Positions 188 through 64,000 of a DNA stretch of 64,000 nucleotides are shown here, piece after piece. Position numbers and translations under genes: made by a program. The number at the start of each line of letters is the position of its first letter. Position 1 is the first letter of the stretch. The notes beneath the pieces are model-generated. The model was not told where the DNA came from, did not search any database, and saw only the letters and a program-made list of their open reading frames with translations. The stretch comes from Alphaproteobacteria bacterium (GTDB taxonomy: Bacteria; Pseudomonadota; Alphaproteobacteria; MPNO01), in contig CBDAUF010000001.1 in assembly GCA_965200535.1 (NCBI GenBank), positions 1,162,102 to 1,226,101 of the forward strand, read 5' to 3'.

Positions 188-1195
188 CTAACCCCCGGTA
201 TTGCCGAGAGACTTGAGCGCATTGATCGCCGACAGGAAGGCCGGGCCGGCGACCAGCAGCATCGTCCCGGGCATCACGAGGAGCAGCATCGGCAGGGTCA
301 TCAGCACCGGCAGCCGCTCCGCCTGCGCCTGGATCCGCGCCGCCTTCTGGACCCGCGCATCCGCGGCGATGTTCCTCATCGACTGCGACAGCGGCGTACC
401 GTAGCGGTCGGCCTGGATGAGGGACATGGCGAAGTCGCGCATCCCGTCGATCTCGGTCCGCCGGTAGTATTCGCCGAGCACGGCGCGCCGGTCGGAGCCG
501 AGCCTGAGTTCCGCCTCGATCTGCCGGAACTCCCGCGCCACCCCGGGTTCGATCTGCGACAGCCCCTCGGCCACCGTCGTCATCGCGCGCTCCACGGTGA
601 GGCCGGATTCGAGGCACATCACCATCATATCGAGGGCGTCGGGCAGGGCCGACATCACCCGTTTGGTGCGCCGGGCGGCCAGCGCGCGGAGCACGTATTC
701 CGGCACCACCCCGCCGAGGACGAGACCGCCCAGCCCGCCGAGCGTGACGACGAAGAGATTCCCGCCCAGCAGCCCCGAGCCGTAGATCCCGAACACCGCG
801 CCGAGGCCGAGGGCGACCGCGCAGCCGAGCTTGCAGGAGAGGAACACCGACAGCGCCTCGGGCCGGGCGAACCCGCTCTTGCGCAGCAGCCGGGAGAGCT
901 TCTCGCGTTCCCCGGCGCCGACCGGGACCAGCATCGAGCCCGCCCGCAGCAGGGCGAGGACGAACCGCCGCACCAGGTCGCCGCCCGACCGGCGGGCGCT
1001 CCGTTGCGGGCCGCCGACCGGGACGCCTTCCTCGCGCAGCGCGCCGAGCCGCCGGTCGAGCGCCCGCGCGCGGCGCGTCTCGCGGAACAGCAGGGGCACC
1101 ATCAGCAGGACGAACAGGACGCCCGCCGCGATGCTCACGGCCGGCAGCCGGGATTCCGGCATCGGCGTCGCTCTCCTACTTCTCGACGGTTGCAC
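188..1195 (-). CDS. tadC: Flp pilus assembly inner-membrane protein TadC (T2SS-F domain)
   Basis: 335-aa ORF with polytopic membrane character. It is the last gene of the tadZ-tadA-tadB-tadC run and overlaps tadB by 20 nt. Confidence 0.75.
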   Translation of the reverse strand: MQPSRSRRATPMPESRLPAVSIAAGVLFVLLMVPLLFRETRRARALDRRLGALREEGVPVGGPQRSARRSGGDLVRRFVLALLRAGSMLVPVGAGEREKLSRLLRKSGFARPEALSVFLSCKLGCAVALGLGAVFGIYGSGLLGGNLFVVTLGGLGGLVLGGVVPEYVLRALAARRTKRVMSALPDALDMMVMCLESGLTVERAMTTVAEGLSQIEPGVAREFRQIEAELRLGSDRRAVLGEYYRRTEIDGMRDFAMSLIQADRYGTPLSQSMRNIAADARVQKAARIQAQAERLPVLMTLPMLLLVMPGTMLLVAGPAFLSAINALKSLGNTGG

Positions 1196-2131
1196 CCATG
1201 GCCCGCGCCGCCAGCAGGCCGGCGACGGCCAGCCCGACGCCCCAGTGCAGCAGGCTCGCCCCCTCCGGGGTGTTGAACAGGATATGGACCGAATGCGGCG
1301 AGATGAAGCTCTGCGCCGTCAGCACGACCGGCGGCAGGACGCTCAGCACCAGCAGCGTCAGGCGGGTCTGGCCGGTGGCGGCGTGCGCCTTCATCGCCGT
1401 GTTGCGCTGCTCGCGCAGCGCATCGGCGAGGTTGGCGAACGCGGCCGACACGCCGCCGCCGGCGCGCCGCTGCAACTGCAGGACCGCGGCGAATAGGGCG
1501 AACTCGGGGAGCCGCACGCGCTGCGAGACGGTCGCCAGCGCGGTGTCGGCGTCGAGGCCCGCGGTCAGCCCGTCGCTGACGCTCTTGAGCACCGGCTGGA
1601 CCGGCGGCCGCGCGTCCTCGGCGACCACCGCGATCGCCTCGATCGGCGGCACCCCGGCGCCGGAAAGCCGCACGATCTGGTCGATGATTTCGGGGAACTG
1701 GTTGCCGAACTCGGTCGCCAGCCGCTTCTGGCTCCACGAGAACGCGTACCATGCCGCCCCCGCGCCGGCGAGAGCGACGATCGGCCACGTCCACCAGCCG
1801 GTCGGGATCACCAGGAACCGCATCCCGATCCACGATCCCGCCGCCGCCGCGATCCCCAGCAGCAGCGCGCGCGGCAGCGTCCGCCCGACATCGAGCAGCG
1901 GGTAGCGGGCCTCGAGCATCCGCCGCAGCCGGCCGGCCCGCCGGCCGCCTTCGGTGCGGAAGATGTCGACCTCCTCTGCCGCCGCGCCCCCGTCGTCGCG
2001 GCCAGTGAGCGGCCCGGCCGCGCGCCGCAGCCGCCGCCGGAACCCGCTGTCGTCGCGCCGCAGCCGCAGGAACAGGAACAGTCCGAGCAGGGTGCTCGCG
2101 CCGCCCCCGATATAGATCAGCAGGGCCGTGC

Positions 2132-2135
<4 letters not shown>
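1176..2135 (-). CDS. tadB: Flp pilus assembly inner-membrane protein TadB (T2SS-F domain)
   Basis: The TadB-like C-terminal two-thirds of ORF 1176..2501. The likely start is TTG at 2135, overlapping the tadA stop (TTGA). The upstream part of that ORF lies in tadA and is an artefact. Confidence 0.7.
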
Positions 2136-3577
<1,442 letters not shown>

Positions 3578-3580
3578 CGA

Positions 3581-5602
3581 TCAGGCCTCCGCCCAGGCCG
3601 CCGGCAGGTCGGCCGGGGCCGGCGCCAGGATGCGTTCGGCAAGGGCGGCGGCCGGTTTGCGCAGCCGCCGGGGAAGCCGGCCCTGCGGCCAGCCGCGGCC
3701 GGCGAGATCCGGCACGGCGGCCTGGAACGGGACGACGATGCCGGGCGGCCTCTCGACCCCCGCCTCGGCCAGCAGCCCCGCGCCCGCGTTCCGCCGGAAC
3801 GCGCGCGTATGGTTCTGCACCAGCGCCACCGGCGCATTCGCGCCCGTCCCCATCGCCGCGAGGATGTGCGCCGCGCGCTGCGCGCCCGCCGTCGTCGGCT
3901 CGACCACCAGCACCCGCGCGTCCACCTCGGCGAGCAGCGCGAAGCAGGTTTCCGGATCGTCCATCCCGTCCACCAGCACCAATTGCGAGCGCCGCCGCAG
4001 CAGCGCCAGCAACCAGTCGAGCGCCGCCATCGGCGGCACCGGCGGCGGCTCCGGGCCGAGGCGGTAGGCGTAGACCGCGATCCGGTCCGACCGTTCGGTG
4101 CGCACCCCGTCGAGCACCTGCGGGTCGGAGAGGGTCGGCCCCGCCATGTCGAAGAGCTGGTCGAGGCCGGGCGCCGGGTCCACGTCGAGCTGGAGCGCCG
4201 CCGCGGCGACCGTCCGGCCGAGATCGAGCACCGAGACATAGCGCCCCTGTTCCGCCGCGCGCAGCGCGGTCGTGGCGGCGAGCGTGGTCGCCCCGCTGCC
4301 GCCGGTGCCGGCGAACCCGGCGACCCGCCCGCCGGCGTCGAAATCGTCGTCGTCGGCCGTGGCCCGCGCGACGGCCGCGCGCACCGCCGCCGCATCGATC
4401 GGCTTGACCAGATAGTCGCTGACCCCGGCGAGCAGGATTTCGCGCCCCGTGCGCGCCGTGTCGTAGGAGCCGACGGCGATCACCGCCGTGCCGACCTCGC
4501 AGACCTCCGCCAGCTCGTGCAGCGCACCGGCCGGATAGCCGACCCCGTCGATATCGACGATGACGAGCTGGGCCGACTGCCCCTCGCCGAGCGCCGCCAC
4601 CGCGGCGCGCAGTCCGCCCGGCCAGACCTGCGGATCCTCGCAGCCGGGCGCCTGCCCCTCGAAATAGAGCAGCCCCTCGCGCAGCGCATTCTCGGTCTCC
4701 CCGTCCGTCGCGAAGGCGAGCGCCGCCGGCGGCCCCGCGGGCGCCGGCTCGGCGGGCGCATCGGGCGGTGCGGCATCGGCGCCGGGTGCGGTGTCCGGCA
4801 GGGTGTCCGGGGCGATGCCGGGGATGGTCTCCGGCGCGGCAGCCGGGGCGCCGGCGGGACCGGGCGGCGGGTCGGGCGCGAAGTCCGATAGGAGATCGGC
4901 CGCGAGATCGGCCCCGAAATCGTCGGCCTCCGGCGCTTCCGGGCGGTCGGGCGCGCCGGGGGGAAAATCGTCGAGCCCGTCCAGCAGCGCGGCCGCGAAA
5001 TCGGCGCCGGGCGGCTCCGCGCCGGGGTCCGGCTCCGGCGCGGCGCGGTCTTCCGGGTCCCGCACGCCGGCGGCGGCGGGACCGTCGGTCGGTGAAATAT
5101 GTGAAAAGTCGGCCGGATCGTCCTCGAACCCGTCCAGGAGCGCGCTCGCGAAATCGGTGTCGGGCGGGCCTGCTTCCGGCGCCGGCTTCGACTCTGGCGC
5201 GGCGGGGGCGGCGAACGCCGCCGGGGCAGGCGCGGCGTCCGGAGCGGCGGCGGGCGCATCGTCCGGGGGGCGGGCGTCTTCGTCATCGGGCGGAAACTCC
5301 GCGAGGCCGTCGAGCAGCGCGCTCGCGAAATCCGCATCGAACGGATCCGTATCGGACGGGTCTGCTTCGGACGGGGCCGTTTCGTGCCGGGTCCGCCCGG
5401 TATCGTCGGGTGTCGGCGGTTGCGCAGGGTCCCCGGCGTCCGCCGGCGCACCCGCGTCCACCGGCGCATCGTCGACGGGTCTATCGGCGGCGGGCGGATC
5501 GTCGGCCAGCCCCGCCAGCAGGGCGCTTTCGAGGTCGGCATCGACCGGCGGCGGATCGTCCGCCCGTCGCGCGGCTGTGTGCGGGGAGGTGTCGTGTGCC
5601 AT
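3581..5602 (-). CDS. tadZ: TadZ/CpaE pilus-assembly protein (receiver-like plus MinD/ParA-like ATPase) with a ~300-aa acidic repeat-containing N-terminal extension
   Basis: The C-terminal ~370 aa carry a receiver-like fold and the deviant Walker A (AGTGGSGATT). The N-terminal extension is Asp/Pro/Ala-rich and holds 5 copies of a D-[FL]-[AE]-S-A-LL-DG-L-x-[DE]-F-PP motif. The true start within the extension is unknown. Confidence 0.75.
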   Translation of the reverse strand: MAHDTSPHTAARRADDPPPVDADLESALLAGLADDPPAADRPVDDAPVDAGAPADAGDPAQPPTPDDTGRTRHETAPSEADPSDTDPFDADFASALLDGLAEFPPDDEDARPPDDAPAAAPDAAPAPAAFAAPAAPESKPAPEAGPPDTDFASALLDGFEDDPADFSHISPTDGPAAAGVRDPEDRAAPEPDPGAEPPGADFAAALLDGLDDFPPGAPDRPEAPEADDFGADLAADLLSDFAPDPPPGPAGAPAAAPETIPGIAPDTLPDTAPGADAAPPDAPAEPAPAGPPAALAFATDGETENALREGLLYFEGQAPGCEDPQVWPGGLRAAVAALGEGQSAQLVIVDIDGVGYPAGALHELAEVCEVGTAVIAVGSYDTARTGREILLAGVSDYLVKPIDAAAVRAAVARATADDDDFDAGGRVAGFAGTGGSGATTLAATTALRAAEQGRYVSVLDLGRTVAAAALQLDVDPAPGLDQLFDMAGPTLSDPQVLDGVRTERSDRIAVYAYRLGPEPPPVPPMAALDWLLALLRRRSQLVLVDGMDDPETCFALLAEVDARVLVVEPTTAGAQRAAHILAAMGTGANAPVALVQNHTRAFRRNAGAGLLAEAGVERPPGIVVPFQAAVPDLAGRGWPQGRLPRRLRKPAAALAERILAPAPADLPAAWAEA

Positions 5603-10983: not shown

Positions 10984-12129
10984 ATGCTGCGGGCGCGGCC
11001 CGGCGCGTCAGGCGCCCGCCTCTCCCCGCCGCCGGCGCAGCGAGGACACCGGTTGACGCTCGAGAACGTCGAGGCCATCGCGCCCAATCTGAAACGCCGG
11101 CTGTCGGGCATCACCGCGACGGTGGTGCGCCTGCTGCCGGTGCAGGCGCGGTCGATCGGCATCGCCGCGACCGGGCCGGGGCTGCCGCCGCAGGTGCCGC
11201 AGGTGCCGCTCCGCTCCGTGCTGCTGATGCCGGGGCGGAAACGCCGGGTGTGGCATGCGCGGCGCAACAACGAGATGCTGCTCGGGCTGGTCCTGCGCCA
11301 CGTGCTGGGCAAGCGCCTGAAGCTCGTGTTCACCTCGGCATCGCGGCCCGAGCACAATCATTCCCGATACAAGCGCTGGCTGCTCTCGCGCATGGATGCG
11401 GTGGTCGCGACCTCGGACGGCACCGCATCCTACATCGGCGCAATCTCCCGCTTGCGGCAGCCCCCGCAGGTGATACCGCACGGCATCGATACCGGGGCCT
11501 TTTGCGCGCCCGCCGACCGCCGCGAGCAGCGGCGCGCGCTGGGCCTGCCCGAGGGCGTGACCGTCGGCTGTTTCGGGCGCATCCGCCGCCACAAGGGCAC
11601 GGATGTGTTCGTCGATGCGATGCTCGACGTGCTGGCGCGCCGCGCCGATGCGGTCGCCCTGGTCATGGGCCGCGCAACCGGGAAGCACCAAGCCTATCTC
11701 CGGGCGCAGCGCGCCAAGGTTGCTGAGGCGGGGCTGGAGGGCCGCATCCTGTTCCTGCCCGAGGCGCCGGTGGACGACATGCCGCGCTGGTACCGGGCGC
11801 TCGACCTGTTCGTCGCCCCGCAGCGCTGGGAGGGGTTCGGCCTCACCCCGCTGGAGGCCATGGCCTGCGGCGTCCCGGTGGTGGCGACGACGGCGGGCGC
11901 GTTCGAGGAACTGGTGGTCGATGGCGGGACCGGCCGCCTGGTGCCGCCCGGCGACGCCCGGCGGATGAGCGCGGCGGTGGGCGAGGCGCTCGATGCCCCC
12001 GGCACCCTCGCCCGGTGGTCGGCGGCGGCCCGCCGCCATGTCGAGCAGGGCTTCCGGATCGAGGACGAGGCGGCGGCGCTGAACGCGCTTTACCGCAAGT
12101 TGCTGGACGGTGATGACGGGGGTGGTTGA
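10984..12129 (+). CDS. GT4-family glycosyltransferase
   Basis: EGFGLTPLEAMACGVPVVAT motif and a Rossmann-like GT-B C-terminal half. The start may instead be TTG at about 11053. Confidence 0.8.
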   Translation: MLRARPGASGARLSPPPAQRGHRLTLENVEAIAPNLKRRLSGITATVVRLLPVQARSIGIAATGPGLPPQVPQVPLRSVLLMPGRKRRVWHARRNNEMLLGLVLRHVLGKRLKLVFTSASRPEHNHSRYKRWLLSRMDAVVATSDGTASYIGAISRLRQPPQVIPHGIDTGAFCAPADRREQRRALGLPEGVTVGCFGRIRRHKGTDVFVDAMLDVLARRADAVALVMGRATGKHQAYLRAQRAKVAEAGLEGRILFLPEAPVDDMPRWYRALDLFVAPQRWEGFGLTPLEAMACGVPVVATTAGAFEELVVDGGTGRLVPPGDARRMSAAVGEALDAPGTLARWSAAARRHVEQGFRIEDEAAALNALYRKLLDGDDGGG

Positions 12130-12376
12130 GCTGGCCGATAATGGCGGGAAACCGTCGCCGCAGTACCCGAGTCGCTGCGCACATTGATTGGAAAGCCCGG
12201 CCCCGTGGAGAAAGCGCGTATCGAGGAGTTTCTTTCTATAGCGAACCCCGACTGGGGTCCGACCGGCGACCGTTTTCCCGAGCACCGCCCGATCGCCCAT
12301 ATTCGCGATCCGGCGGGACAGTTGGTATGATATATCGAGTTGCGTTTACTTCAGCAAAAGCGATCCGGTCGGACGA

Positions 12377-12784
12377 TTGATCGCGTCCTGGGCGGCATTC
12401 TGTCGCGACCATCGCAATGTCTGGGATCAGCTTCTCCTGACCCTGGCGTGGTTTCGCGTGGCAAAACACATGCCAATCGCCAGCCTTTGGCTGAATGAGG
12501 GAATTTTTCGGTTTCCCCGACCGAGAATACGCGACTGGCGCGACCGTGTCTTCTATTACCCATACAAGCGTAAAATTCGACCGTTCATCGATCAGAAACA
12601 AGCCTCGCGCTCGCTAAAATCGTTCATAAATGCATCCGGGAACAGCGCCGGAATGCAAGGGGAAGAACTGGGCTCAGAAAACGTTTCTTCGGGCTTCCGC
12701 AATGCATTGAAACGCTGTGATTTCAGTTTCGATGCGCGAATTGAGACCATTCTACCCCCCCCCCCCCGCGGGGGACAGCGATAG
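12377..12784 (+). CDS. hypothetical protein (low-GC island); its 3' end contains the poly-C tract (…ILPPPPRGGQR)
   Basis: ORF-track entry only, with no recognisable family. It ends in TAG-TAG immediately before the next ATG. Confidence 0.25.
   Translation: MIASWAAFCRDHRNVWDQLLLTLAWFRVAKHMPIASLWLNEGIFRFPRPRIRDWRDRVFYYPYKRKIRPFIDQKQASRSLKSFINASGNSAGMQGEELGSENVSSGFRNALKRCDFSFDARIETILPPPPRGGQR
12755..12767. repeat. homopolymeric C13 tract followed by GCGGGGG
   Basis: Counted directly in the sequence. It lies 21 nt upstream of the ATG at 12788 and inside the last codons of ORF 12377..12784. Confidence 0.9.
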
Positions 12785-12787
12785 TAG

Positions 12788-13546
12788 ATGACAGCCAGGC
12801 GAAAATCGCGCCTGGAGCGCCTTCTGTCCTTGAACTGGCACCGCAAGCGCTGGGGTGCTTCGAAGCATGTCGCCGCCGGCGGGAGAGGCGACCTCTCCGC
12901 CATGAAGACGGATATCGTCGAGGCGGGAACGCCGATACAGACACGCGGTTCCGAGAAGTCGCTCGATCTCCACCTCGCCAATCTCCGGGACGAGTTCTCG
13001 GGACAACCGGAATTGATTTGGTACCATGCCAAGCTGATCGTCCTGATCAGACGCGAGTTCCGCACATCGGAAAACTATTCACAATTTCGGTTGCTTTGGG
13101 ATGCCGAACACACTTTTCTGTGCGAGAATCTGAACATCCGATGGCTGGTTTCGGCAGCGGACACCATTGCTGATCATGACCGGGATCCCGAGATACGCGC
13201 GGCGGCGATGATGGCGACCCTTCTCGTCAACACCATCAAGATGCAGGAAAGCGAGCGCTACGTGTGCGATGCGTCGAGCTTGCCGCCCGATCCTGCTCGC
13301 ATCACCCGTCTCGGGAACGAATTGGTGCCGCTCTTTTCCGGGATGTCCTCTTTCTCGGTAGGCACCGACGATACGCTCAGGAACATGTACTGGCGGCTTG
13401 AGCCGTTCTTCGGGGCCGGACCGGGGGGAAAAATCCTGAAGACAGTCTGGTCCCGGCTCCAGGTCGAAGACACGGTTTTCGCCCGAATGCGCAAACTGCA
13501 CCGCCGCAACCGTACGCGCTGGTGGGACGATACCGATCAGCGCTGA
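12788..13546 (+). CDS. hypothetical protein (252 aa, low-GC island)
   Basis: Longest ORF in the region, preceded by GGGGGA 12 nt upstream. No recognisable family. It is convergent with the GT25 gene. Confidence 0.4.
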   Translation: MTARRKSRLERLLSLNWHRKRWGASKHVAAGGRGDLSAMKTDIVEAGTPIQTRGSEKSLDLHLANLRDEFSGQPELIWYHAKLIVLIRREFRTSENYSQFRLLWDAEHTFLCENLNIRWLVSAADTIADHDRDPEIRAAAMMATLLVNTIKMQESERYVCDASSLPPDPARITRLGNELVPLFSGMSSFSVGTDDTLRNMYWRLEPFFGAGPGGKILKTVWSRLQVEDTVFARMRKLHRRNRTRWWDDTDQR

Positions 13547-14328
13547 CCGCCGATGAAATGGCTGCGGTCGAGGCGGATTTGACGGCGTCGGGCATGATGC
13601 GCATGGCACAGCACCCGGACCGCGATCCCCATCTCGATCCCTATGCGACGCAGCCGGAAACCGGGGGTCCACCGTCTTACTCGCTTCTCGCGGTCGGCAC
13701 CGATAGTCGAGGGAGCCCGGATCGGCGCTGCCAGACCGTACCTGGCGGCGCGGTCGAGTTGTACCGCACAGGCCGGTTCGATCTGGAAGCTGCGCAGTTC
13801 GTACGCCAGACTGATTACAGCATCGGCAGGCCCGGCCCTGCGCGACGCGTTCTCCAGAAGCATCCTCGCCCCGGACGGCCATAACAGATAGGCAACCGCG
13901 CCGCTGCGGTCCTGGAAGAGCCTGTGAAGCCGATGTTCCGGCGTGAGGTGCCGGCCCGCGCGTGCAACGGTCTTGCGCTGCTGCCGAACTTCGAGCGTCA
14001 GGCGATCGATCTCCGCAAGTTGTCCGGCTGCCGCCAGAACGCCGGGTGTATGCGCTGACAGGATGGCGTCGTCCTCGAGGATGAGAACCGGCATTTCCAT
14101 CTCGGCGACCCGGTTCCAGGCGGCGATATGGCTGAGGAGACAGGCGCGTTCGGCGTCCCCCAGCGGCCTTGCCCAACTGTTCCAGTAGCTGTCGCTTCGC
14201 GCCGTCGAGGCGTCGCCGGACTCGACGGCCTCGAGTCTCTCGAATTTCAGCCCGAGCCTGTCGAGCTGCTCGCTCATGAATTTCATGCGCTCCGTTTCGG
14301 CGGCGAGATTGATTACCAGACAATGCAT
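13537..14328 (-). CDS. GT25-family glycosyltransferase (LPS/LOS core galactosyl-transferase-like)
   Basis: MHCLVINLAAETERMKFMSEQL N-terminus typical of GT25. The ATG at 14328 was chosen; the upstream MDRIRTNCEDRP segment is a translated copy of the 44-bp repeat. Confidence 0.75.
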   Translation of the reverse strand: MHCLVINLAAETERMKFMSEQLDRLGLKFERLEAVESGDASTARSDSYWNSWARPLGDAERACLLSHIAAWNRVAEMEMPVLILEDDAILSAHTPGVLAAAGQLAEIDRLTLEVRQQRKTVARAGRHLTPEHRLHRLFQDRSGAVAYLLWPSGARMLLENASRRAGPADAVISLAYELRSFQIEPACAVQLDRAARYGLAAPIRAPSTIGADREKRVRRWTPGFRLRRIGIEMGIAVRVLCHAHHARRRQIRLDRSHFIGGQR

Positions 14329-14548: not shown

Positions 14549-15151
14549 TTACCCCGCCGCTCCCGAGACCCGGAGCAGTCGGCTCACATCCCGCCACAGC
14601 TTGTCGAAGGAGGGCGCCGCCGCGCGCGCCGCGTCCATATCGAAGCGGGCGGTAAACGAAGCCTGGTGGAGTGTTTCGCGATAGGTCTTGCCCGGCCGCA
14701 TCCGCGCGGCCAGCCAGCCTTTCGCATTCGCGATCGCCTCGGGGTTGCCCGGCGGCGCGACGGCGGGATCGGCGTCCCGCCATTCGATCAGCGACGCGGC
14801 CGCCGCGATAAACCAAGCCTCGTATTCCATCTTCGCCAGCACCGCGCAGACGGTCCGGTCCGGTCTGGCGTCGCGGGCGCGCTGCAGGAGTTCCGGCGCG
14901 AGCCTCGCCGGGCAATCGCCGTTGGCGTCGAACAGGAGCAGGATACAGCCGTTCGCTGCCGCCCTTCCGGCGGCGAGGTCGATGGTGCGTTCGAGTTCGC
15001 CGCCTCGCAGGATGCGGTTGCGGCTCACCCGGATCGGCCTCGGGATGTCGAGCGCGATATCGGGCGACACCTGTGCGGCGATCCGGCGCAGCAGCACCGG
15101 AACCGCCCGGACCTCGCCATGCCCCTCGACGACGGTCGCTATTCGATGCAC
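14549..15151 (-). CDS. DUF4276-like protein (possible Toprim-like partner of the upstream ATPase)
   Basis: GTG at 15151 overlaps the ATPase 3' end by 13 nt. N-terminal VHRIATVVEGHGEVRAVPVLLRRI and C-terminal MEYEAWF motifs as recalled for DUF4276. The remaining 5' part of ORF 14549..16090 is artefact. Confidence 0.6.
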   Translation of the reverse strand: MHRIATVVEGHGEVRAVPVLLRRIAAQVSPDIALDIPRPIRVSRNRILRGGELERTIDLAAGRAAANGCILLLFDANGDCPARLAPELLQRARDARPDRTVCAVLAKMEYEAWFIAAAASLIEWRDADPAVAPPGNPEAIANAKGWLAARMRPGKTYRETLHQASFTARFDMDAARAAAPSFDKLWRDVSRLLRVSGAAG

Positions 15152-16362
15152 GCGCCGGGACCCGGGCCGAACAGATCGATGCGGCGCGGCGCCGGCCTCG
15201 AAGCCTCGGGATCCGGCTCGATCTGGTCCATCCTGAGCAGTTCGCCCGCGGTGTACAGGCGCTTCTTCAGGGCCGCACGGCCGACCTCGTCGAGCGGGCC
15301 GATACGGCTCTCGCCGTGCTCCAGCGCGACGGCAATAATCGATTCCGCAGGAATATCCTCGTCGTCGAGCAGGTCGGGGCTGTGGCTGGTCACCAGGATC
15401 TGCGCGTTGTCCGCGGCATCCCTGAGGCTGTCGATCAGGACGCCGAAGGCGGCGGGGTGAAGGGCGATCTCCGGCTCCTCGATACCGACGAGCCGCCGCG
15501 CCGCCCCGGCGGTTCCGGCACCCTGAAAGACCGCGGTCAGCACGCCGAGCGCGCGCAGGGTGCCATCCGACATGTTGGCGGCGAGAAAGCGCCACGGATG
15601 CTGCGCACCGCGAACCTCCTGGCGAAACTCCAGGGTCTCGCGCGGTCCCACCGGGCGCCGGTCGACGCCGTCGATGCCCGGCGCGACCTCGCCCAGATAG
15701 TCCTCGATTCTCCGCTTGAAATCGGGTGCGCGCGCGGCGAGGCCGGAGAGGACGCTCGCCAGATTGCTCCCGTCGCGTTTCAGCAGCGTTCCCGGATCCG
15801 GCGGCTGGAGGTCGCGGATGGCTTCCGGGTTGAGATTGTAAACCCCCGTCGACGACAGCGCCTCGTAGACCGGGCGGAAGGCATCGATCCCGGAGACCGC
15901 GACCAGATACAGGCGGTCGGCGGCGGCGAGCGGGGCCGGCGAGACGGTGATCCGGCGAACCCGGCCCTTCTCCACCCTGAAATAGTGCGAACCCGATCCG
16001 TCCCGCGCAATCGACAGGCACTCCTCGCTGCGCACCGCGTATCCACGGTCGGGCATGGAGCCGACCGTGAAGGCGTAGTGTCCGCGCCACGCCTCCAAGC
16101 CGAATTCGACGCGAATCCCGAAATGGTTGGGATGGCCGCCCGAGCGCCGGCGCACCTCGCCGATGCCGCCGCGGTCGCGCAGCGCGTGGTCGATCGAGAA
16201 GCGGAGCGCATCGGCGACGAAGTGGAGGGCGTCGAGAAAATTGCTCTTCCCCGATCCGTTCGGCCCGACGAGGAAGGAGACCTGCGCCGGCGAAATGTCG
16301 CAGGCGCCGATGCTCTTGTAGTTTCTGAGCCTTATCCGCGTCAGTAGTCGGCGGTCAGGCAT
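15139..16362 (-). CDS. AAA_21/AAA_15-type ABC ATPase (OLD/AbiLi/AriA-like)
   Basis: Walker A GPNGSGKSN, Walker B IGIEEPE, TSHSP. ATG at 16362 with GGAGG upstream. The first 26 codons of the track ORF are a translated repeat copy. Confidence 0.8.
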   Translation of the reverse strand: MPDRRLLTRIRLRNYKSIGACDISPAQVSFLVGPNGSGKSNFLDALHFVADALRFSIDHALRDRGGIGEVRRRSGGHPNHFGIRVEFGLEAWRGHYAFTVGSMPDRGYAVRSEECLSIARDGSGSHYFRVEKGRVRRITVSPAPLAAADRLYLVAVSGIDAFRPVYEALSSTGVYNLNPEAIRDLQPPDPGTLLKRDGSNLASVLSGLAARAPDFKRRIEDYLGEVAPGIDGVDRRPVGPRETLEFRQEVRGAQHPWRFLAANMSDGTLRALGVLTAVFQGAGTAGAARRLVGIEEPEIALHPAAFGVLIDSLRDAADNAQILVTSHSPDLLDDEDIPAESIIAVALEHGESRIGPLDEVGRAALKKRLYTAGELLRMDQIEPDPEASRPAPRRIDLFGPGPGACIE

Positions 16363-58304: not shown

Positions 58305-59426
58305 TCAATCGTTGCCCCAGACCTCCCTGGCCACGTCGACCACGAGGCCGAGCTTGGCCATCTCGTCGGCCTCCGCGATGGGGTTGCCCTGGTAGATGCT
58401 GGCGAAGCCGCATTGCGGGCTCAGCCCGAGCTGTTCCATCGGCACGTAGCGGGCGGCCTCGTCGATCCGGCGTTTCAAGTCGTCCTTCGGTTCGAGCGCC
58501 GCCTTCTTGGTCGTGACGAGCCCGAGCACAACCAGCTTGTCGTCCCGCTGGAGGTGGCGCAACGGCGTGAAGTCGCCCGCCCGCGGCTAGTCGTATTCCA
58601 TGAACAGGGCGTCGACCTCGAGGTCGTTCAGCAGGGCCTCGGCGACCGGCTCGTAGCCGCCCTCCGCCACCCAGGCGCCGCGCACGTTCCCGCGGCACAT
58701 ATGCAAGCCGACGCGCTGACCGGCGGGCCGGTTGCGGATGCAGGCGTTGATGATCTTCGCATAGAAGCCCGGCAGCTCGTCCAGATCCTCGCCGATGCGG
58801 CGGTACCGGTCGTGGAACTTCGGGTCGCACATATGGGCGAAGTTGGTATCGTCGATCTGCACGAAGTCGCAGCCCGCATCCCACAGCGCGTGAAGCTCGG
58901 CGTTGTATACCTCGGCGAGCCCGGCAATCAGCGCGTCCTTGTCGGGATAGAGCGCCTTGTTGATTCCGGCCCAGCCGCCCCGGGCGTACATGTAGGTGGG
59001 CGAGGGGATGCACGTCTTGACCGTGCGGTCGGTCAGTGCGCTGGTGAACTTGTAATCCTCCACCGCCAGTCCGCCGGGCGGATGCCCCAGCCGACCGGTG
59101 ACCTCCAGCACCGGCGGGGCGTATTCGATGTCCTCGTCCTCGTAGTGGAAGTGGAACTCGACCCGGCCGGTCAACTCGACGCCCTCGATCCGGGTCAGGA
59201 TCGGGGTGTGAAATTCGTAGCGACGAAACTCGCCGTCGGTCACCGTCGGGATGCCGGTCTCCTCCTGGAGCGACACGACCCGGCGGATACAGCGGTCCTC
59301 GACCTCGCGCCGCGCCCGGTCGTCGATCTCTCCGCGTTCGTGCGCCTCAAGCGTCCGCTGCAACTCCATCGGGCGCAACAGGCTGCCAATATGGTCGGCG
59401 CGGAATGGCGGCTTTCCCGGTTGCAT
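58305..59426 (-). pseudogene. cobalamin-independent methionine synthase MetE C-terminal-domain-like (UROD/MetE-like) gene interrupted by one in-frame TAG at 58587-58589
   Basis: ORFs 58587..59567 and 58305..58562 are in the same frame, separated by TAG plus 8 sense codons. ATG at 59426 with GGGGAGAG RBS. The conserved …CGF… zinc-site region lies in the downstream part. Confidence 0.65.
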
Positions 59427-59624
59427 GACGGCAACTCTCCCCAAGTCCAGCGTCCCTAGACGATCCAGCGTGACAGCCGCCGGGTCCCCGGGCAAGCGGC
59501 GTCCGAACGATACCATCGGAGCGACGGCCCGAACCTGAACCAGAGCCGGCGCCCGCTTCATCCGCACACGGCGATGAAGACAACAGGGGCCCGAAGGCTT
59601 TCGCGATCGGCGGGCCAGTGTGCC

Positions 59625-61331
59625 TTATTGTACTCGGCAGTAGCATGACGACGTAATGGCAACGTCGGCTCTTGCCAAAGCAAACCCGAGCTTCTGTTCG
59701 AGGATCTGCGCTTCTTTCGAATCGCGATTTTCTCGCACACATTCCAACAGCCCATGCATAGCCCACAGGTTATCCGGATGCTGGCTACAGCGGGCGATCT
59801 CGTCGGTGTAGCCGAGATCTGCTCTGTAAACGGCTTCCGCTTCTTCCAACCGACCTCGCTGCAACAACAGTGCACCCAGGGCATGACGCGGCGGATGCAT
59901 CCACGCCCACGGTTCGGTGAAGTTCAGATTGTCGTCCCTCTGAACAGCCAAGCGCAATAAATCAAAGGCGAGATCGTAGTTTTGCTTCCTATATTCCAAT
60001 TCCCCTTCCAGCATGGCCTTGCCGACAAGCAGGATATCACGCACAAAATTGCTGAGGAAAATTTCGTTTTCGGGAATCGCTTGAAGACGCCTTTCGAACT
60101 GTACCCTGGCGGCTTCCGCGCTTTCGATATCGCCCAAGGCGGAATATGCCACCCCCTTGCCGTAGTAATGCATGGCAGTCCGGATCGGGGTTCCTTCCGG
60201 GCGTTCCGGCAATCCGTCTTCAATCAGCTCTCGCCATTTTCCAAAACGCACGTATACATGGGTTCGCATCGCCGAATAACCATCCAGGATGTTAGCCATG
60301 AATGGGTAGCTTGAGGCAATTAATTGCGGGGTTGCCGTGGTGCAAATTCGGTTTGCGGCGTTGATCGCGTCCACGTAGCGGCCAAAAAACATGGCGGTGT
60401 ACATGTATAGATGAAAATCGTGGCATCGAGCGGTAGTGTAAAAGTTATTGGGACCGGCAATGTCCAAATATTTGTCGTCCGCACGAACGGCGCGACGGGA
60501 CTGTTCCATTGCCTGTGCGTAATCGCCGCACAGCACGTAAATATGCGCCGCTACATGCTCTATGTGACCTCCGTCCGCCACCAGTCCGCGCAGCATGTCC
60601 GCGGCGCGCAGAGCCCGTTCAGGAAATGGCGACATCTCCATCGCGTGGATATACATATGTAGAACACCGGGATGGCGGATCCCCGTCTTATCGGTTTCCC
60701 GGACCGCAGTCTCCAGAACGGAAATTGCTTCCTCGGTCAAGGCGTCCGGATTCGGTCTCCCGGTCTTGAGATTCCACAAACGCCGAGGCGTGCAGGTTAT
60801 AGCCGCCTCCGCAAACAGAGCAACTACATCAAGGTCGGTCCGGAAAGCGGCGTAAACCGCTCGCATTTCATCGGTAAATTCGCGATGCCATCGATCCAAT
60901 ACTCGATGCTTGTTTTCGCTTCGAGATTGATAGCGGGCCGATATTGCCCGTATCAGCGCACGCTCGTCCGGTCTGTCGTTATCGGCTCTATCCAGCGCGC
61001 GGCATGCTTCTTTTGCAGCGTCATAGCATTGCGGCAATGTCTCGGTAATCTCTCGCTCGGTATAGCGGATCCAGGGGCGGTTGTAGAATGGTCCGCCGGC
61101 ATAGGCGATGCCCCACCAAGCCATCGCACAGTCGGGGTCGTGTCGGAGCGCTTCACGGAAACACGATACGGCCTCTTCATGATTGTAAGCGTATGTCCAG
61201 TTCAGCCCTAAACTGAACCACGCCTTTGCTTCTGGCGACGCGGCCTTGACGTCTCTTTTCCAAGCGCCGAGATCAAATTCATAACGCGCAGAACTTTTCG
61301 CATGACCAATGCTCGAATAATTCTCTTTCAC
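59625..61331 (-). CDS. TPR-like helical repeat protein (568 aa, ~52% GC)
   Basis: Long helical repeat protein, paralogous to 56087..57370 and of markedly lower GC than its surroundings. Confidence 0.55.
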   Translation of the reverse strand: MKENYSSIGHAKSSARYEFDLGAWKRDVKAASPEAKAWFSLGLNWTYAYNHEEAVSCFREALRHDPDCAMAWWGIAYAGGPFYNRPWIRYTEREITETLPQCYDAAKEACRALDRADNDRPDERALIRAISARYQSRSENKHRVLDRWHREFTDEMRAVYAAFRTDLDVVALFAEAAITCTPRRLWNLKTGRPNPDALTEEAISVLETAVRETDKTGIRHPGVLHMYIHAMEMSPFPERALRAADMLRGLVADGGHIEHVAAHIYVLCGDYAQAMEQSRRAVRADDKYLDIAGPNNFYTTARCHDFHLYMYTAMFFGRYVDAINAANRICTTATPQLIASSYPFMANILDGYSAMRTHVYVRFGKWRELIEDGLPERPEGTPIRTAMHYYGKGVAYSALGDIESAEAARVQFERRLQAIPENEIFLSNFVRDILLVGKAMLEGELEYRKQNYDLAFDLLRLAVQRDDNLNFTEPWAWMHPPRHALGALLLQRGRLEEAEAVYRADLGYTDEIARCSQHPDNLWAMHGLLECVRENRDSKEAQILEQKLGFALARADVAITSSCYCRVQ

Positions 61332-61793
61332 CGATCATTTCTCACCGTTGCAGCGCCCGACTTGGTGATACACGCGAAAGATAAATTCGTCAACAAGAGA
61401 GATAATGACAAACGCAAACAGCGTCCGGGAAGCCGGCTCTCTTCGAGAACCTGGCAGCGGCATCTGCTGTGCCGCCGCAAAACCCGGCGGGTCAGCCGAG
61501 ACCCTCGCGATGGGAATTATACGCTTGGCTAGCCAGAGTTGGAATCTGTATCAGGATTCCATGGCGATACCAAGCCGAGGCAAAGATCGAGACGCCTAAG
61601 GGTGCTCGGAGCCAAACCTTCGTGAGGCTCTATTCCGGGTTCAAGCACATGGCGCTTGCCGTCGGGGGAGGCCAACCTAGTGAAACCTCCCCACTCGTTG
61701 CTTCCTGCCTGATCTGCTCGACCGCCTTCACCACCCAGTCATTCGCAGTATTCGGCGAAGGTAGGGAACGACTGGAACGGATGCGCGGACACC

Positions 61794-62096
61794 TTAAGCT
61801 GCAAGCTCTAGTTGATTTTCTTCCTTCTCGAAGATTCTTCCCCTTCTGACGCCGGGGGCATCCCACATTTCATGATACCGGGCAGGTGCGGGTTCGATCC
61901 CGTCGAACGGCCTTCCCGACCGGGCACGGGTATCGTCCAACGTTGCCCGATAGGCTGTCCGCAGCCGTTGCTTGACCTCATCCATGCTGCAACCCTGCGC
62001 ACCGATATAGTGTTCAAGGCAGACGGCCACATAGACTTCGTCTTCCTTGAAGATCACGAATCGTATGGCATTGGATTGGTTCATCCTTTCCCCCAT
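61794..62096 (-). CDS. HicB-like (UPF0150/RNase-H-fold) antitoxin-family protein, no HicA partner found
   Basis: IRFVIFKEDEVYVAVCLEHYIGAQGCSMDEVKQRLRTAY resembles HicB N-domains. Low confidence. Confidence 0.35.
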   Translation of the reverse strand: MGERMNQSNAIRFVIFKEDEVYVAVCLEHYIGAQGCSMDEVKQRLRTAYRATLDDTRARSGRPFDGIEPAPARYHEMWDAPGVRRGRIFEKEENQLELAA

Positions 62097-62192
62097 CCCT
62101 TGGAGAGACGATCCAATAGATGGAGATTTTCCTTGTCAAGAGGGTTGACGCTGCCCCCTTTTCTCTTATATTACTAGCCAGAGATAGACGGG

Positions 62193-63191
62193 TTGCAGAG
62201 CATCGAGGGAGTAAGGAAGATGGCAAAGCGGGGTCCGGGCAAGGCGCATCGGGAAGGGATGACGGTCATCGAGCTACTCAAGATGTTCCCCGACGATGCA
62301 GCGGCGGAGAAATGGTTCGAGGCGCAGCGCTGGCCGGAAGGCCGGTTCTGCCCGGACTGCGGCTCCACGGATACCGTCCCTGTCGCCAGCCGCAAGCCCA
62401 TGCCGCACCGCTGCCGGTCTTGCCGGGGTCACTTCTCGGTCAAAAAGGGAACGGTCATGCAGTCCAGCAAGATCGGGCTGCAAAAGTGGGTCATCGCCAT
62501 CTACATGATGACGACCGGACTCAAGGGAACGTCCAGCATGAAGCTGTACCGCGAGGTCGGCATTCGACAAGCGACCGCTTGGTTCATGATGCAGCGCATC
62601 CGCGAGGGTTTCGACCTTGGCTAGGGAAAGCCGTTTCCCGGCCCTGTCGAGGTTGACGAGACCTATATCGGCGGCAAGCGCAAGAACATGCCGAAAGCCA
62701 AGCGCGAAGCGATGACGGGCCGGGGCGCGGTCGGCAAGACCATCGTGGCGGGCGCTAAGGATCGCCAGACTAACGCGGTTTCCGCCCGTACAGTTCCGAA
62801 CACGCAGATGGCCACGCTGCAAGGCTTTGTGAAGGAAAACGCGGTCCCTTGCGCCACCATCTACACTGACGAAGCCCCGGCCTATGTCGGGATGCGGTAC
62901 AACCACGAAAGCGTCAATCACTCGGCTGGCGAATACGTCCGCAACGATGCCCATACCCAAGGGATCGAATCCTTCTGGTCGATGTTCAAGCGCGGCTATC
63001 AGGGCACCTACCACAAGATGAGCCCTAAGCATCTTGAACGGTACGTGACGGAGTTCGCCGAGCGCCATAACGACCGCGACGCCGATACGGTCGATCAAAT
63101 GGGCAAGCTAGCAAAGGGAATGACGGGCAAGCGGCTGCGTTACGAAGACCTGATCGCCGATAACGGGCTGGAGAGCGGAGCGCGGGCGTGA
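62193..63191 (+). mobile_element. IS1595-family transposase gene (Zn-ribbon plus DDE domain) interrupted by one in-frame TAG at 62625-62627
   Basis: CPDCGS…CRSCRGHF zinc ribbon in ORF 62193..62624 and EVDETYIGGK plus a DDE_Tnp_IS1595-like domain in ORF 62688..63191. Both are in the same frame. The IS ends were not identified. Confidence 0.75.
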
Positions 63192-64000
63192 CCGCCAACT
63201 TTGCGAGCGGGACGATTTGGACGGGTGATAACCTGTCCGTCATGCGAGGCATGAACGATGCCTGCATTGACCTGATCTATCTCGATCCGCCGTTCAATTC
63301 GAACCGCACCTATGAAGCGCCGATAGGCAGCAAGGCGGCTGGCGCATCGTTCAAGGATGCATGGACGCTGGCGGACGTGGACGTGTACGAGCATGGCGAA
63401 CTGGCGGATCGCAACCCCGCCGCCTATGCCGTTATCGAGGCTGCCCGTCTCGCTCACGGCAAGGGCATGATGTCATACCTGATATTCATGGCCGTGCGGC
63501 TGCTAGAGATGCAGCGCATCCTCAAGCCGACAGGAAGCATCTACCTGCATTGCGATCCGACCGCCTCGCACTACCTCAAGTTGCCAATGGATGCAATCTT
63601 CGGGCGAGCCAACTTCAAAAACGAAGTCATATGGTCATATCGTCGCTGGCCATCGAAAAGCCGCAACTTCCAGACCATGCATGATGTTCTGTTGTTTTTC
63701 ACCGCCGGTGAGCCGCATATATTCAATGTCGCGTACGAACCGCCGAGCAAAAGCTATCTCAAGCGATTCAAAGGGAAAACCCAAATTCTCGACCCGGAAA
63801 CGCGGACGCGAAAGCTGGTAGTTGAAGCCCCCACCAAGGGATTGCCGAGACGCGATGTATGGGAAATGTCAATCATCGCGGGATCATCAAAGGAACGTCT
63901 CGGCTATCCAACGCAGAAGCCTCTTGCGTTGCTGACCCGGATTATCGAAGCCAGTTCCAACCCCGGCGACATGGTGCTTGATCCCTTCTGCGGGTGCGCG
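63188..64000 (+). CDS. N6-adenine/N4-cytosine DNA methyltransferase (PF01555-type, DPPF motif), 3'-partial at window end
   Basis: …IWTGDNLSVMRGMNDACIDLIYLDPPFNS… …SIYLHCDP… Its GTG start overlaps the transposase TGA (GTGA). Confidence 0.8.
   Translation, partial: MTANFASGTIWTGDNLSVMRGMNDACIDLIYLDPPFNSNRTYEAPIGSKAAGASFKDAWTLADVDVYEHGELADRNPAAYAVIEAARLAHGKGMMSYLIFMAVRLLEMQRILKPTGSIYLHCDPTASHYLKLPMDAIFGRANFKNEVIWSYRRWPSKSRNFQTMHDVLLFFTAGEPHIFNVAYEPPSKSYLKRFKGKTQILDPETRTRKLVVEAPTKGLPRRDVWEMSIIAGSSKERLGYPTQKPLALLTRIIEASSNPGDMVLDPFCGCA

Follow-up and report, generated by a model that had tools for sequence, protein, structure and literature searches.

An apparently length-variable poly-C tract between a gene remnant and a conserved GT25-linked gene: a candidate mutational switch in an uncultured alphaproteobacterium

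Does the long run of cytosines at this locus act as a mutational switch for the gene that follows it, or is it a by-product of gene decay? The run lies in a 64,000-nt stretch of alphaproteobacterial DNA (hereafter, the window), and the original prediction was that it is a candidate phase-variation switch. Our analysis divides that claim. The over-long, length-polymorphic tract stands, but neither an in-ORF frameshift of an intact gene nor a promoter-spacing link was found to connect it with expression. On the sequence evidence assembled here, a mutational switch at the tract is credible but unproven.

The tract and the genes around it

The tract and the elements that follow it are:

12755-12767, forward strand: poly-C tract (C13), preceded by TTCTA
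12768-12775, forward strand: SD-like purine run GCGGGGGA, containing G5 at 12770-12774, which matches GGGGAA or GGGAAG 5' of the start in relatives
12782-12791, forward strand: stop/start junction TAGTAGATGA, with a TAG at -6 and a TGA overlapping the ATG
12788-13546, forward strand: intact 252-aa gene of a conserved, unannotated, all-helical family
13537-14328, reverse strand: GT25 glycosyltransferase gene (263 aa), convergent with the 252-aa gene and sharing 10 nt with it at the 3' ends

The stretch reads TTCTA-C13-GCGGGGGACAGCGATAGTAG-ATG; that is, the tract is followed by GCGGGGGA, by two TAG stops (12782-12784 and 12785-12787), and by the ATG at 12788-12790, with 20 nt between the tract and the ATG. 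ORF 12377-12784, which ends ...ILPPPPRGGQR* (ETILPPPPRGGQR*), contains the tract in its last codons; ORF 12788-13546 follows in that frame after the TAG-TAG doublet, exactly as had been described.

The description of the C13 run as exceptional also holds, since it is the only homopolymer of at least 7 bases in 64 kb: the counts are 10 for C6, 8 for G6, and zero for lengths 7-12. An iid model expects 0.08 C/G runs of at least 13 bases and 49 of at least 7, and C13 alone is observed; a count this far under the iid expectation indicates that the genome avoids runs strongly, more than the model allows. The shuffle null by itself is mildly significant (p~0.04), as 4 of 100 dinucleotide shuffles give at least four overlapping C10 matches, the observed count. 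Run lengths in the window drop about 4.5-fold per extra base, and extrapolation of this empirical fall-off would put the expected number of runs as long as C13 at ~1e-3 or lower. Across 82 related loci (932,646 nt) the longest C/G run is 8. The tract is over-long both for the base composition and for the run-length distribution of the genome, which is one mark of an SSR contingency locus.

The base composition agrees with the earlier picture of a low-GC glycosyltransferase island in a genome of ~70% GC: GC is 69.0% in the window and falls to 52-64% at 12200-13400. A second lower-GC stretch (55-62% versus ~70%) occupies the right end of the window, at 59001-64000. Genes of the Tad/Flp-pilus type, including T2SSF and a T2SSE CpaF-like ATPase, are encoded on the reverse strand at 188-5602. 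The nearest database relatives of the CpaF-like ATPase are metagenome proteins (82-88% identity), pointing to an uncultured lineage.

The 252-aa gene is an intact member of its family, as indicated by its codon-position GC (GC3 high and GC2 low in its own frame) and by 631 database homologues (~248 aa) that begin at the same residue. The family is without a Pfam or NCBIfam model. Its convergent neighbor was correctly assigned to GT25 by the original prediction (PF01755, 84 bits versus a gathering score cutoff of 24, E 1.7e-23), and a GT25 gene immediately adjoins the 252-aa gene in about three-quarters of the 82 related loci. In Alphaproteobacteria, the window included, the two genes converge and overlap at their 3' ends; in Gammaproteobacteria, Betaproteobacteria, and Verrucomicrobia they are co-directional. 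Paracoccus denitrificans is one of the species with the pair. Judged by this gene order, the 252-aa family and GT25 are an unannotated conserved gene pair. A direct effect of the tract on the GT25 gene itself is not supported: that gene is convergent, its stop lies 770 nt beyond the tract, and it is not directly controlled.

Two further elements near the start codon were considered. A 7-bp stem (CCAGGCG/CGCCTGG, 12795-12815) lies just within the 252-aa ORF and is also present in three related loci (L004, L005, and L008); it was dropped as a functional element, as it is not kept across 32 relatives of the 252-aa family. A search of Rfam for an RNA family near the tract gave just a distant tRNA.

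The lower-GC stretch also contains, directly adjoining the GT25 gene, a pair of genes matching a PADLOC candidate defense system:

14549-15097, reverse strand: DUF4276 protein, HEC-01B match, E 7e-61
15139-16362, reverse strand: AAA_21/AAA_15 ATPase, HEC-01A match, E 2e-155

Origin of the tract in a gene remnant

Upstream of the tract are the remains of another gene and, before them, an intact glycosyltransferase gene:

10984-12129, forward strand: GT4 glycosyltransferase gene, directly 5' of the pseudogene
12196-12318, forward strand: N-terminal remnant (~35-39 aa, by tblastn) of a gene of the family that we call up316, in a different frame from the C-terminal remnant
12299-12754, forward strand: C-terminal remnant (~150 aa, by tblastn) of the same ~300-316-aa up316 gene, holding most of ORF 12377-12784

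In tblastn comparisons with nine full-length up316 homologues, the last ~150 residues match 12299/12308-12754 at 52-64% identity, and four of the nine also match N-terminally (12196-12318), in another frame. Residues ~41-151 of up316 (~110 residues), including the DXD-like CWIDADAEI, are missing from the window, and the start has been lost too. These alignments show that the upstream ORF belongs to a pseudogene that has undergone both an internal deletion and a frameshift; the upstream gene, lacking ~110 residues that include the DXD-like motif, is dead. The up316 similarity ends at 12754, the base directly 5' of the tract. The earliest start codon available to the remnant ORF is a TTG (12377) that lacks a good SD, and the ancestral N-terminus is out of frame. 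A change in the C-terminus of this ORF, which had been proposed as one effect of slippage, has no meaning of its own, as the ORF is the C-terminal remnant of a ~300-aa gene. The up316 family has no Pfam or PDB match. The GT4 gene is the probable source of read-through transcription into the region of the pseudogene and the 252-aa gene.

About 30 relatives encode a protein of ~300-316 aa with CWIDADAEI upstream of the 252-aa gene, in the same orientation and at full length, often 0-50 nt apart. In L004, L005, and L008 the up316 stop overlaps the start of the 252-aa gene as ATGA, an ancestral overlap that suggests ancestral translational coupling of the two genes. The up316 gene spans 5054-6004 in L004 and 3413-3931 plus 5585-6001 in L005, where it is interrupted by a UPF0236-type transposase gene, a second independent inactivation besides that in the window. 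In L004 (1-5031) and L005 (1-1829), which are among the closest relatives, the cassette of up316 and 252-aa genes is surrounded by genes of mobile elements (MobA/MobL, Fic, integrase, resolvase, and rve and Transposase_mut transposases). This suggests that the cassette moves horizontally, consistent with its low GC in the window.

At the corresponding junction, a homopolymer is absent in all 82 related loci. When the closest junctions (L004, L005, and L008) are aligned, the window has a ~10-nt insertion that coincides with the C run; this insertion leaves in place both the purine motif (GGGGGA in the window, GGGGAA in L004) and the ATGA at the start. This combination of an insertion and retained flanking motifs indicates a lineage-specific expansion in an unconstrained gene tail. 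Identical copy aside, the nearest homologue of the 252-aa protein has 71% identity, and no intermediate stages of tract growth were seen among the relatives. As no relative has the tract, the comparison gives no evolutionary indication that mutability was selected.

The reading that we favor, tentatively, is that a slippage-prone poly-C tract, expanded in the present lineage only in the tail of a glycosyltransferase-like pseudogene, now serves as a leader that modulates the 252-aa partner of GT25. An alternative interpretation, which we find somewhat doubtful but quite possible, is that the tract is a neutral microsatellite: the tail of the decayed gene drifted, a short C run crossed the slippage threshold, and its length now random-walks, with no regulatory effect and no selection for mutability. 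This interpretation fits a tract that lies within a demonstrable pseudogene remnant and is missing from every one of the relatives, and it gains from the results of the next section, where no intact ORF is found to be frameshifted, no promoter to be spanned, and no SD-ATG spacing to be affected, and where the wide range of alleles (C10-C15) suggests no stabilizing selection on length. However, the placement of the tract is non-random: it precedes by 21 nt the start codon of a gene that is intact, conserved, and glycan-linked, it abuts an SD-like motif, and it occupies an ancestral coupling junction. Neither the rest of the window nor 0.93 Mb of relatives contains a long G/C run, and tracts this far from an ORF do alter expression in uspA1.

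Length variation and its possible effects

Tract lengths were read from assembled contigs in three Logan assemblies of separate runs, all with an identical 252-aa gene:

SRR33960549: contig of 8,375 nt; SNP at 15640 and a 2-nt gap versus the window; C15
SRR33960551: contig of 5,389 nt; same SNP at 15640, gap-free versus the window; C13
SRR33960552: contig of 2,149 nt; a 3-nt gap alone versus the window; C10

Indels between the three contigs and the window are confined to the poly-C tract, and each contig has at most one SNP. The comparison of tract lengths that the original prediction had proposed as a check thus favored it, giving C10, C13, and C15 in three assemblies otherwise identical over 2-8 kb. 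As judged from assembled contigs, the tract is polymorphic in length among otherwise identical sequences, as expected of an SSR contingency locus. An exact-pattern scan of JGI metagenomes found no further tract alleles.

Alternatively, the tract could be real but fixed in length, and the three lengths in the Logan contigs could stem from miscalled homopolymers or from choices made during assembly, as may happen with long-read or low-coverage data. The lengths are known from assembled contigs alone, and homopolymers of more than 10 bases are error-prone on every sequencing platform. On the other hand, over 2-8 kb the same contigs carry no further indel and one SNP at most, which argues for accurate reads. 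In addition, the usual homopolymer stutter is +/-1, and the alleles here differ by a larger 2-5 nt; and C13 was obtained twice independently, in the window and in SRR33960551 (L002). We consider a fixed length unlikely and the variation in tract length very probably real.

The SNP common to SRR33960549 and SRR33960551 (15640, G>C versus the window) lies within the HEC-01A gene and is the sole substitution in up to 8.4 kb. All three contigs start within 3 nt of one another (12049-12051), in the 3' end of the GT4 gene. The window contains no 16-mer repeat that would explain these shared starts, which could reflect falling coverage where GC reaches 78% or a breakpoint in the population at the edge of the island.

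Slippage cannot frameshift any intact gene here. Nor does it alter the spacing of the RBS, as had been predicted: the tract is 5' of the SD-like GGGGGA, so its length leaves the distance from SD to ATG unchanged. The predicted effect on promoter spacing is unlikely, with only 20 nt to the ATG and no flanking -35/-10 pair; a promoter scan of 11900-13700 found no such pair around the tract, and its sole sigma70-like match is at 12113-12142. It is highly improbable that the tract sets the distance from an activator or -35 to a -10 for the 252-aa gene, as in Bordetella fim or Neisseria opc, for although TTGAGA at 12741-12746 resembles a -35 box and C-stretch promoters exist in high-GC Bordetella, the scan finds no promoter across the tract, only 20 nt separate it from the ATG, and the best -10-like hexamer (GATAGT, 12780-12785) would leave a 33-nt spacer and ends 2 nt before the ATG, placing the transcription start inside the conserved N-terminus.

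What tract length does change is the place at which the remnant ORF stops:

C10, C13, C16 (3n+1): stop at the TAG at -6, 3 nt before the ATG
C9, C12, C15 (3n): stop at the ancestral TGA overlapping the ATG (+1)
C8, C11, C14, C17 (3n+2): neither junction stop in frame; the remnant ORF reads 383 nt into the 252-aa gene, out of frame

Each observed allele (C10, C13, and C15) falls in one of the two classes with a stop at the start codon, an outcome that has a chance expectation of 30% with n=3. A fusion of the remnant ORF with the 252-aa ORF by frameshift was rejected as impossible, as the two are in the same frame at C13 and the other frames give out-of-frame read-through. Also rejected was a hairpin that would sequester the SD in a length-dependent manner. 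In RNA folding, five of the tract Cs pair with the G5 (P>=0.95) for any tract of at least 6 Cs, so that pairing is saturated from C6 up, and the predicted hairpin energies are equal for C10-C15; structure alone gives no length dependence. In this folding model, the C:G hairpin does not sense tract length, but may reduce independent initiation. The placement of the tract fits neither an in-ORF frameshift nor promoter spacing as a route to altered expression of an intact gene, and its position in the leader, at the coupling junction, is a possible link to expression.

A proposed mechanism, its precedents, and its meaning

If the favored reading of a modulating leader is correct, the pseudogene tail would now serve as the 5' leader of the intact 252-aa gene. 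The C run would pair with the SD-like G5 at all observed lengths, making translation of the 252-aa gene dependent on ribosomes arriving via the remnant ORF, and tract length would set the frame of that ORF and hence where the ribosomes stop. Ribosomes crossing the remnant ORF would open the C:G hairpin and end translation at the start codon of the 252-aa gene. In the 3n+1 class (C10, C13) they would stop at the TAG 3 nt before the ATG, and in the 3n class (C12, C15) at the ancestral TGA overlapping it; both would permit re-initiation. In the 3n+2 class (C11, C14) they would read 383 nt out of frame into the 252-aa gene, lowering expression, so that one length class in three would abolish coupling. 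The outcome would be stochastic, heritable, and reversible modulation of a gene associated with surface glycans.

We think it quite unlikely, all the same, that the remnant has been co-opted in just this way, as a phase-variable leader ORF in which poly-C length gates translational coupling into the 252-aa gene. The remnant ORF is without a convincing start, so that ribosome flow through the tract may be negligible, which would undermine the coupling model. Alternatively, leader length could affect the mRNA level, as in uspA1 (PMC7302503). A more speculative route is that a C-rich and probably untranslated leader aids Rho loading; the base composition at 12690-12770 is 0.36 C versus 0.21 G.

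The Neisseria poly-G genes lgtA/C/D are not known to belong to GT25, and Lex2B is a GT25-type enzyme. In Haemophilus, the LOS genes lic2A, lgtC, lex2A, and others carry tetranucleotide repeats, not homopolymers, and vary via these repeats (PMC3116884), which makes inexact the precedent of homopolymer-driven GT25 genes to which the original prediction had appealed. Neisseria lgtA, lgtC, lgtD, and lgtG resemble the present locus in having a homopolymeric G/C tract in a LOS/LPS glycosyltransferase cluster; their tracts are inside intact ORFs and cause ON/OFF frameshifts, whereas here no intact ORF contains the tract.

Three other systems come nearer. By position, the closest analogue is uspA1 of Moraxella catarrhalis, in which a G(n) tract 29 bp 5' of the ORF changes mRNA ~20-fold (PMC7302503). 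Both tracts are length-variable G/C homopolymers of ~8-12 or more bases, tens of bases 5' of the ORF (29 versus 21 bp) and outside the frame that would be controlled. The 21-nt distance fits, and the sole promoter-like site is that at 12113-12142. The mRNA effect was measured in uspA1, whereas the present tract is known from sequence alone; and an ordinary leader and an adhesin there contrast with a pseudogene tail and an unannotated helical protein in an uncultured, high-GC environmental host here.

By sequence and host composition, the closest analogues are the C-stretches (10-18 Cs) in the fim2, fim3, and fimX promoters of the high-GC Bordetella pertussis (PMC1891110; Willems 1990 cited there). 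Here too a poly-C tract in a high-GC genome is polymorphic between isolates and lies 5' of what would be a surface-structure gene. The fim tract, however, lies between the activator site and the -10; the present tract is 20 nt from the ATG without a usable -10, leaving no room for a -10 and a leader, and shows no promoter signal.

By logic, the closest analogue is lex2A/lex2B of Haemophilus influenzae, in which the SSR is in the upstream ORF lex2A and the glycosyltransferase gene lex2B is downstream (PMC3116884). In both cases the repeat is in a short upstream ORF, the gene of interest is just 3', and the locus is one of glycan biosynthesis with a GT25-type enzyme. The lex2A repeat is a tetranucleotide near the 5' end of a genuine ORF, in contrast to a homopolymer within the final codons of what remains of a dead gene; and the gene that follows is a glycosyltransferase there but not itself one here. 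The present locus has frame-dependent stops at -6, +1, and +383; translation of its remnant ORF is doubtful, given the TTG start and the lack of an in-frame ancestral N-terminus. Taken by analogy with these systems, the tract is a candidate upstream-of-ORF homopolymeric SSR in an unusual host and setting.

A neutral tract would still make the locus a clean case of a microsatellite arising from gene decay, and a warning that the homopolymer length in the present assembly is not fixed. If the remnant has been co-opted as a phase-variable leader, the bacterium would have a contingency mechanism for switching a surface glycan, which could plausibly serve phages as a receptor, beside a HEC-01 candidate defense system. 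To our knowledge, almost all documented contingency loci come from host-adapted pathogens. If one were to work in an uncultured, high-GC environmental bacterium, beside glycosyltransferase and defense genes, it would extend phase variation beyond such pathogens and would point to the same bet-hedging, here against phage or grazers. A working switch would also supply a natural ON/OFF series for the conserved 252-aa family, and with it a functional handle on an unannotated protein family.
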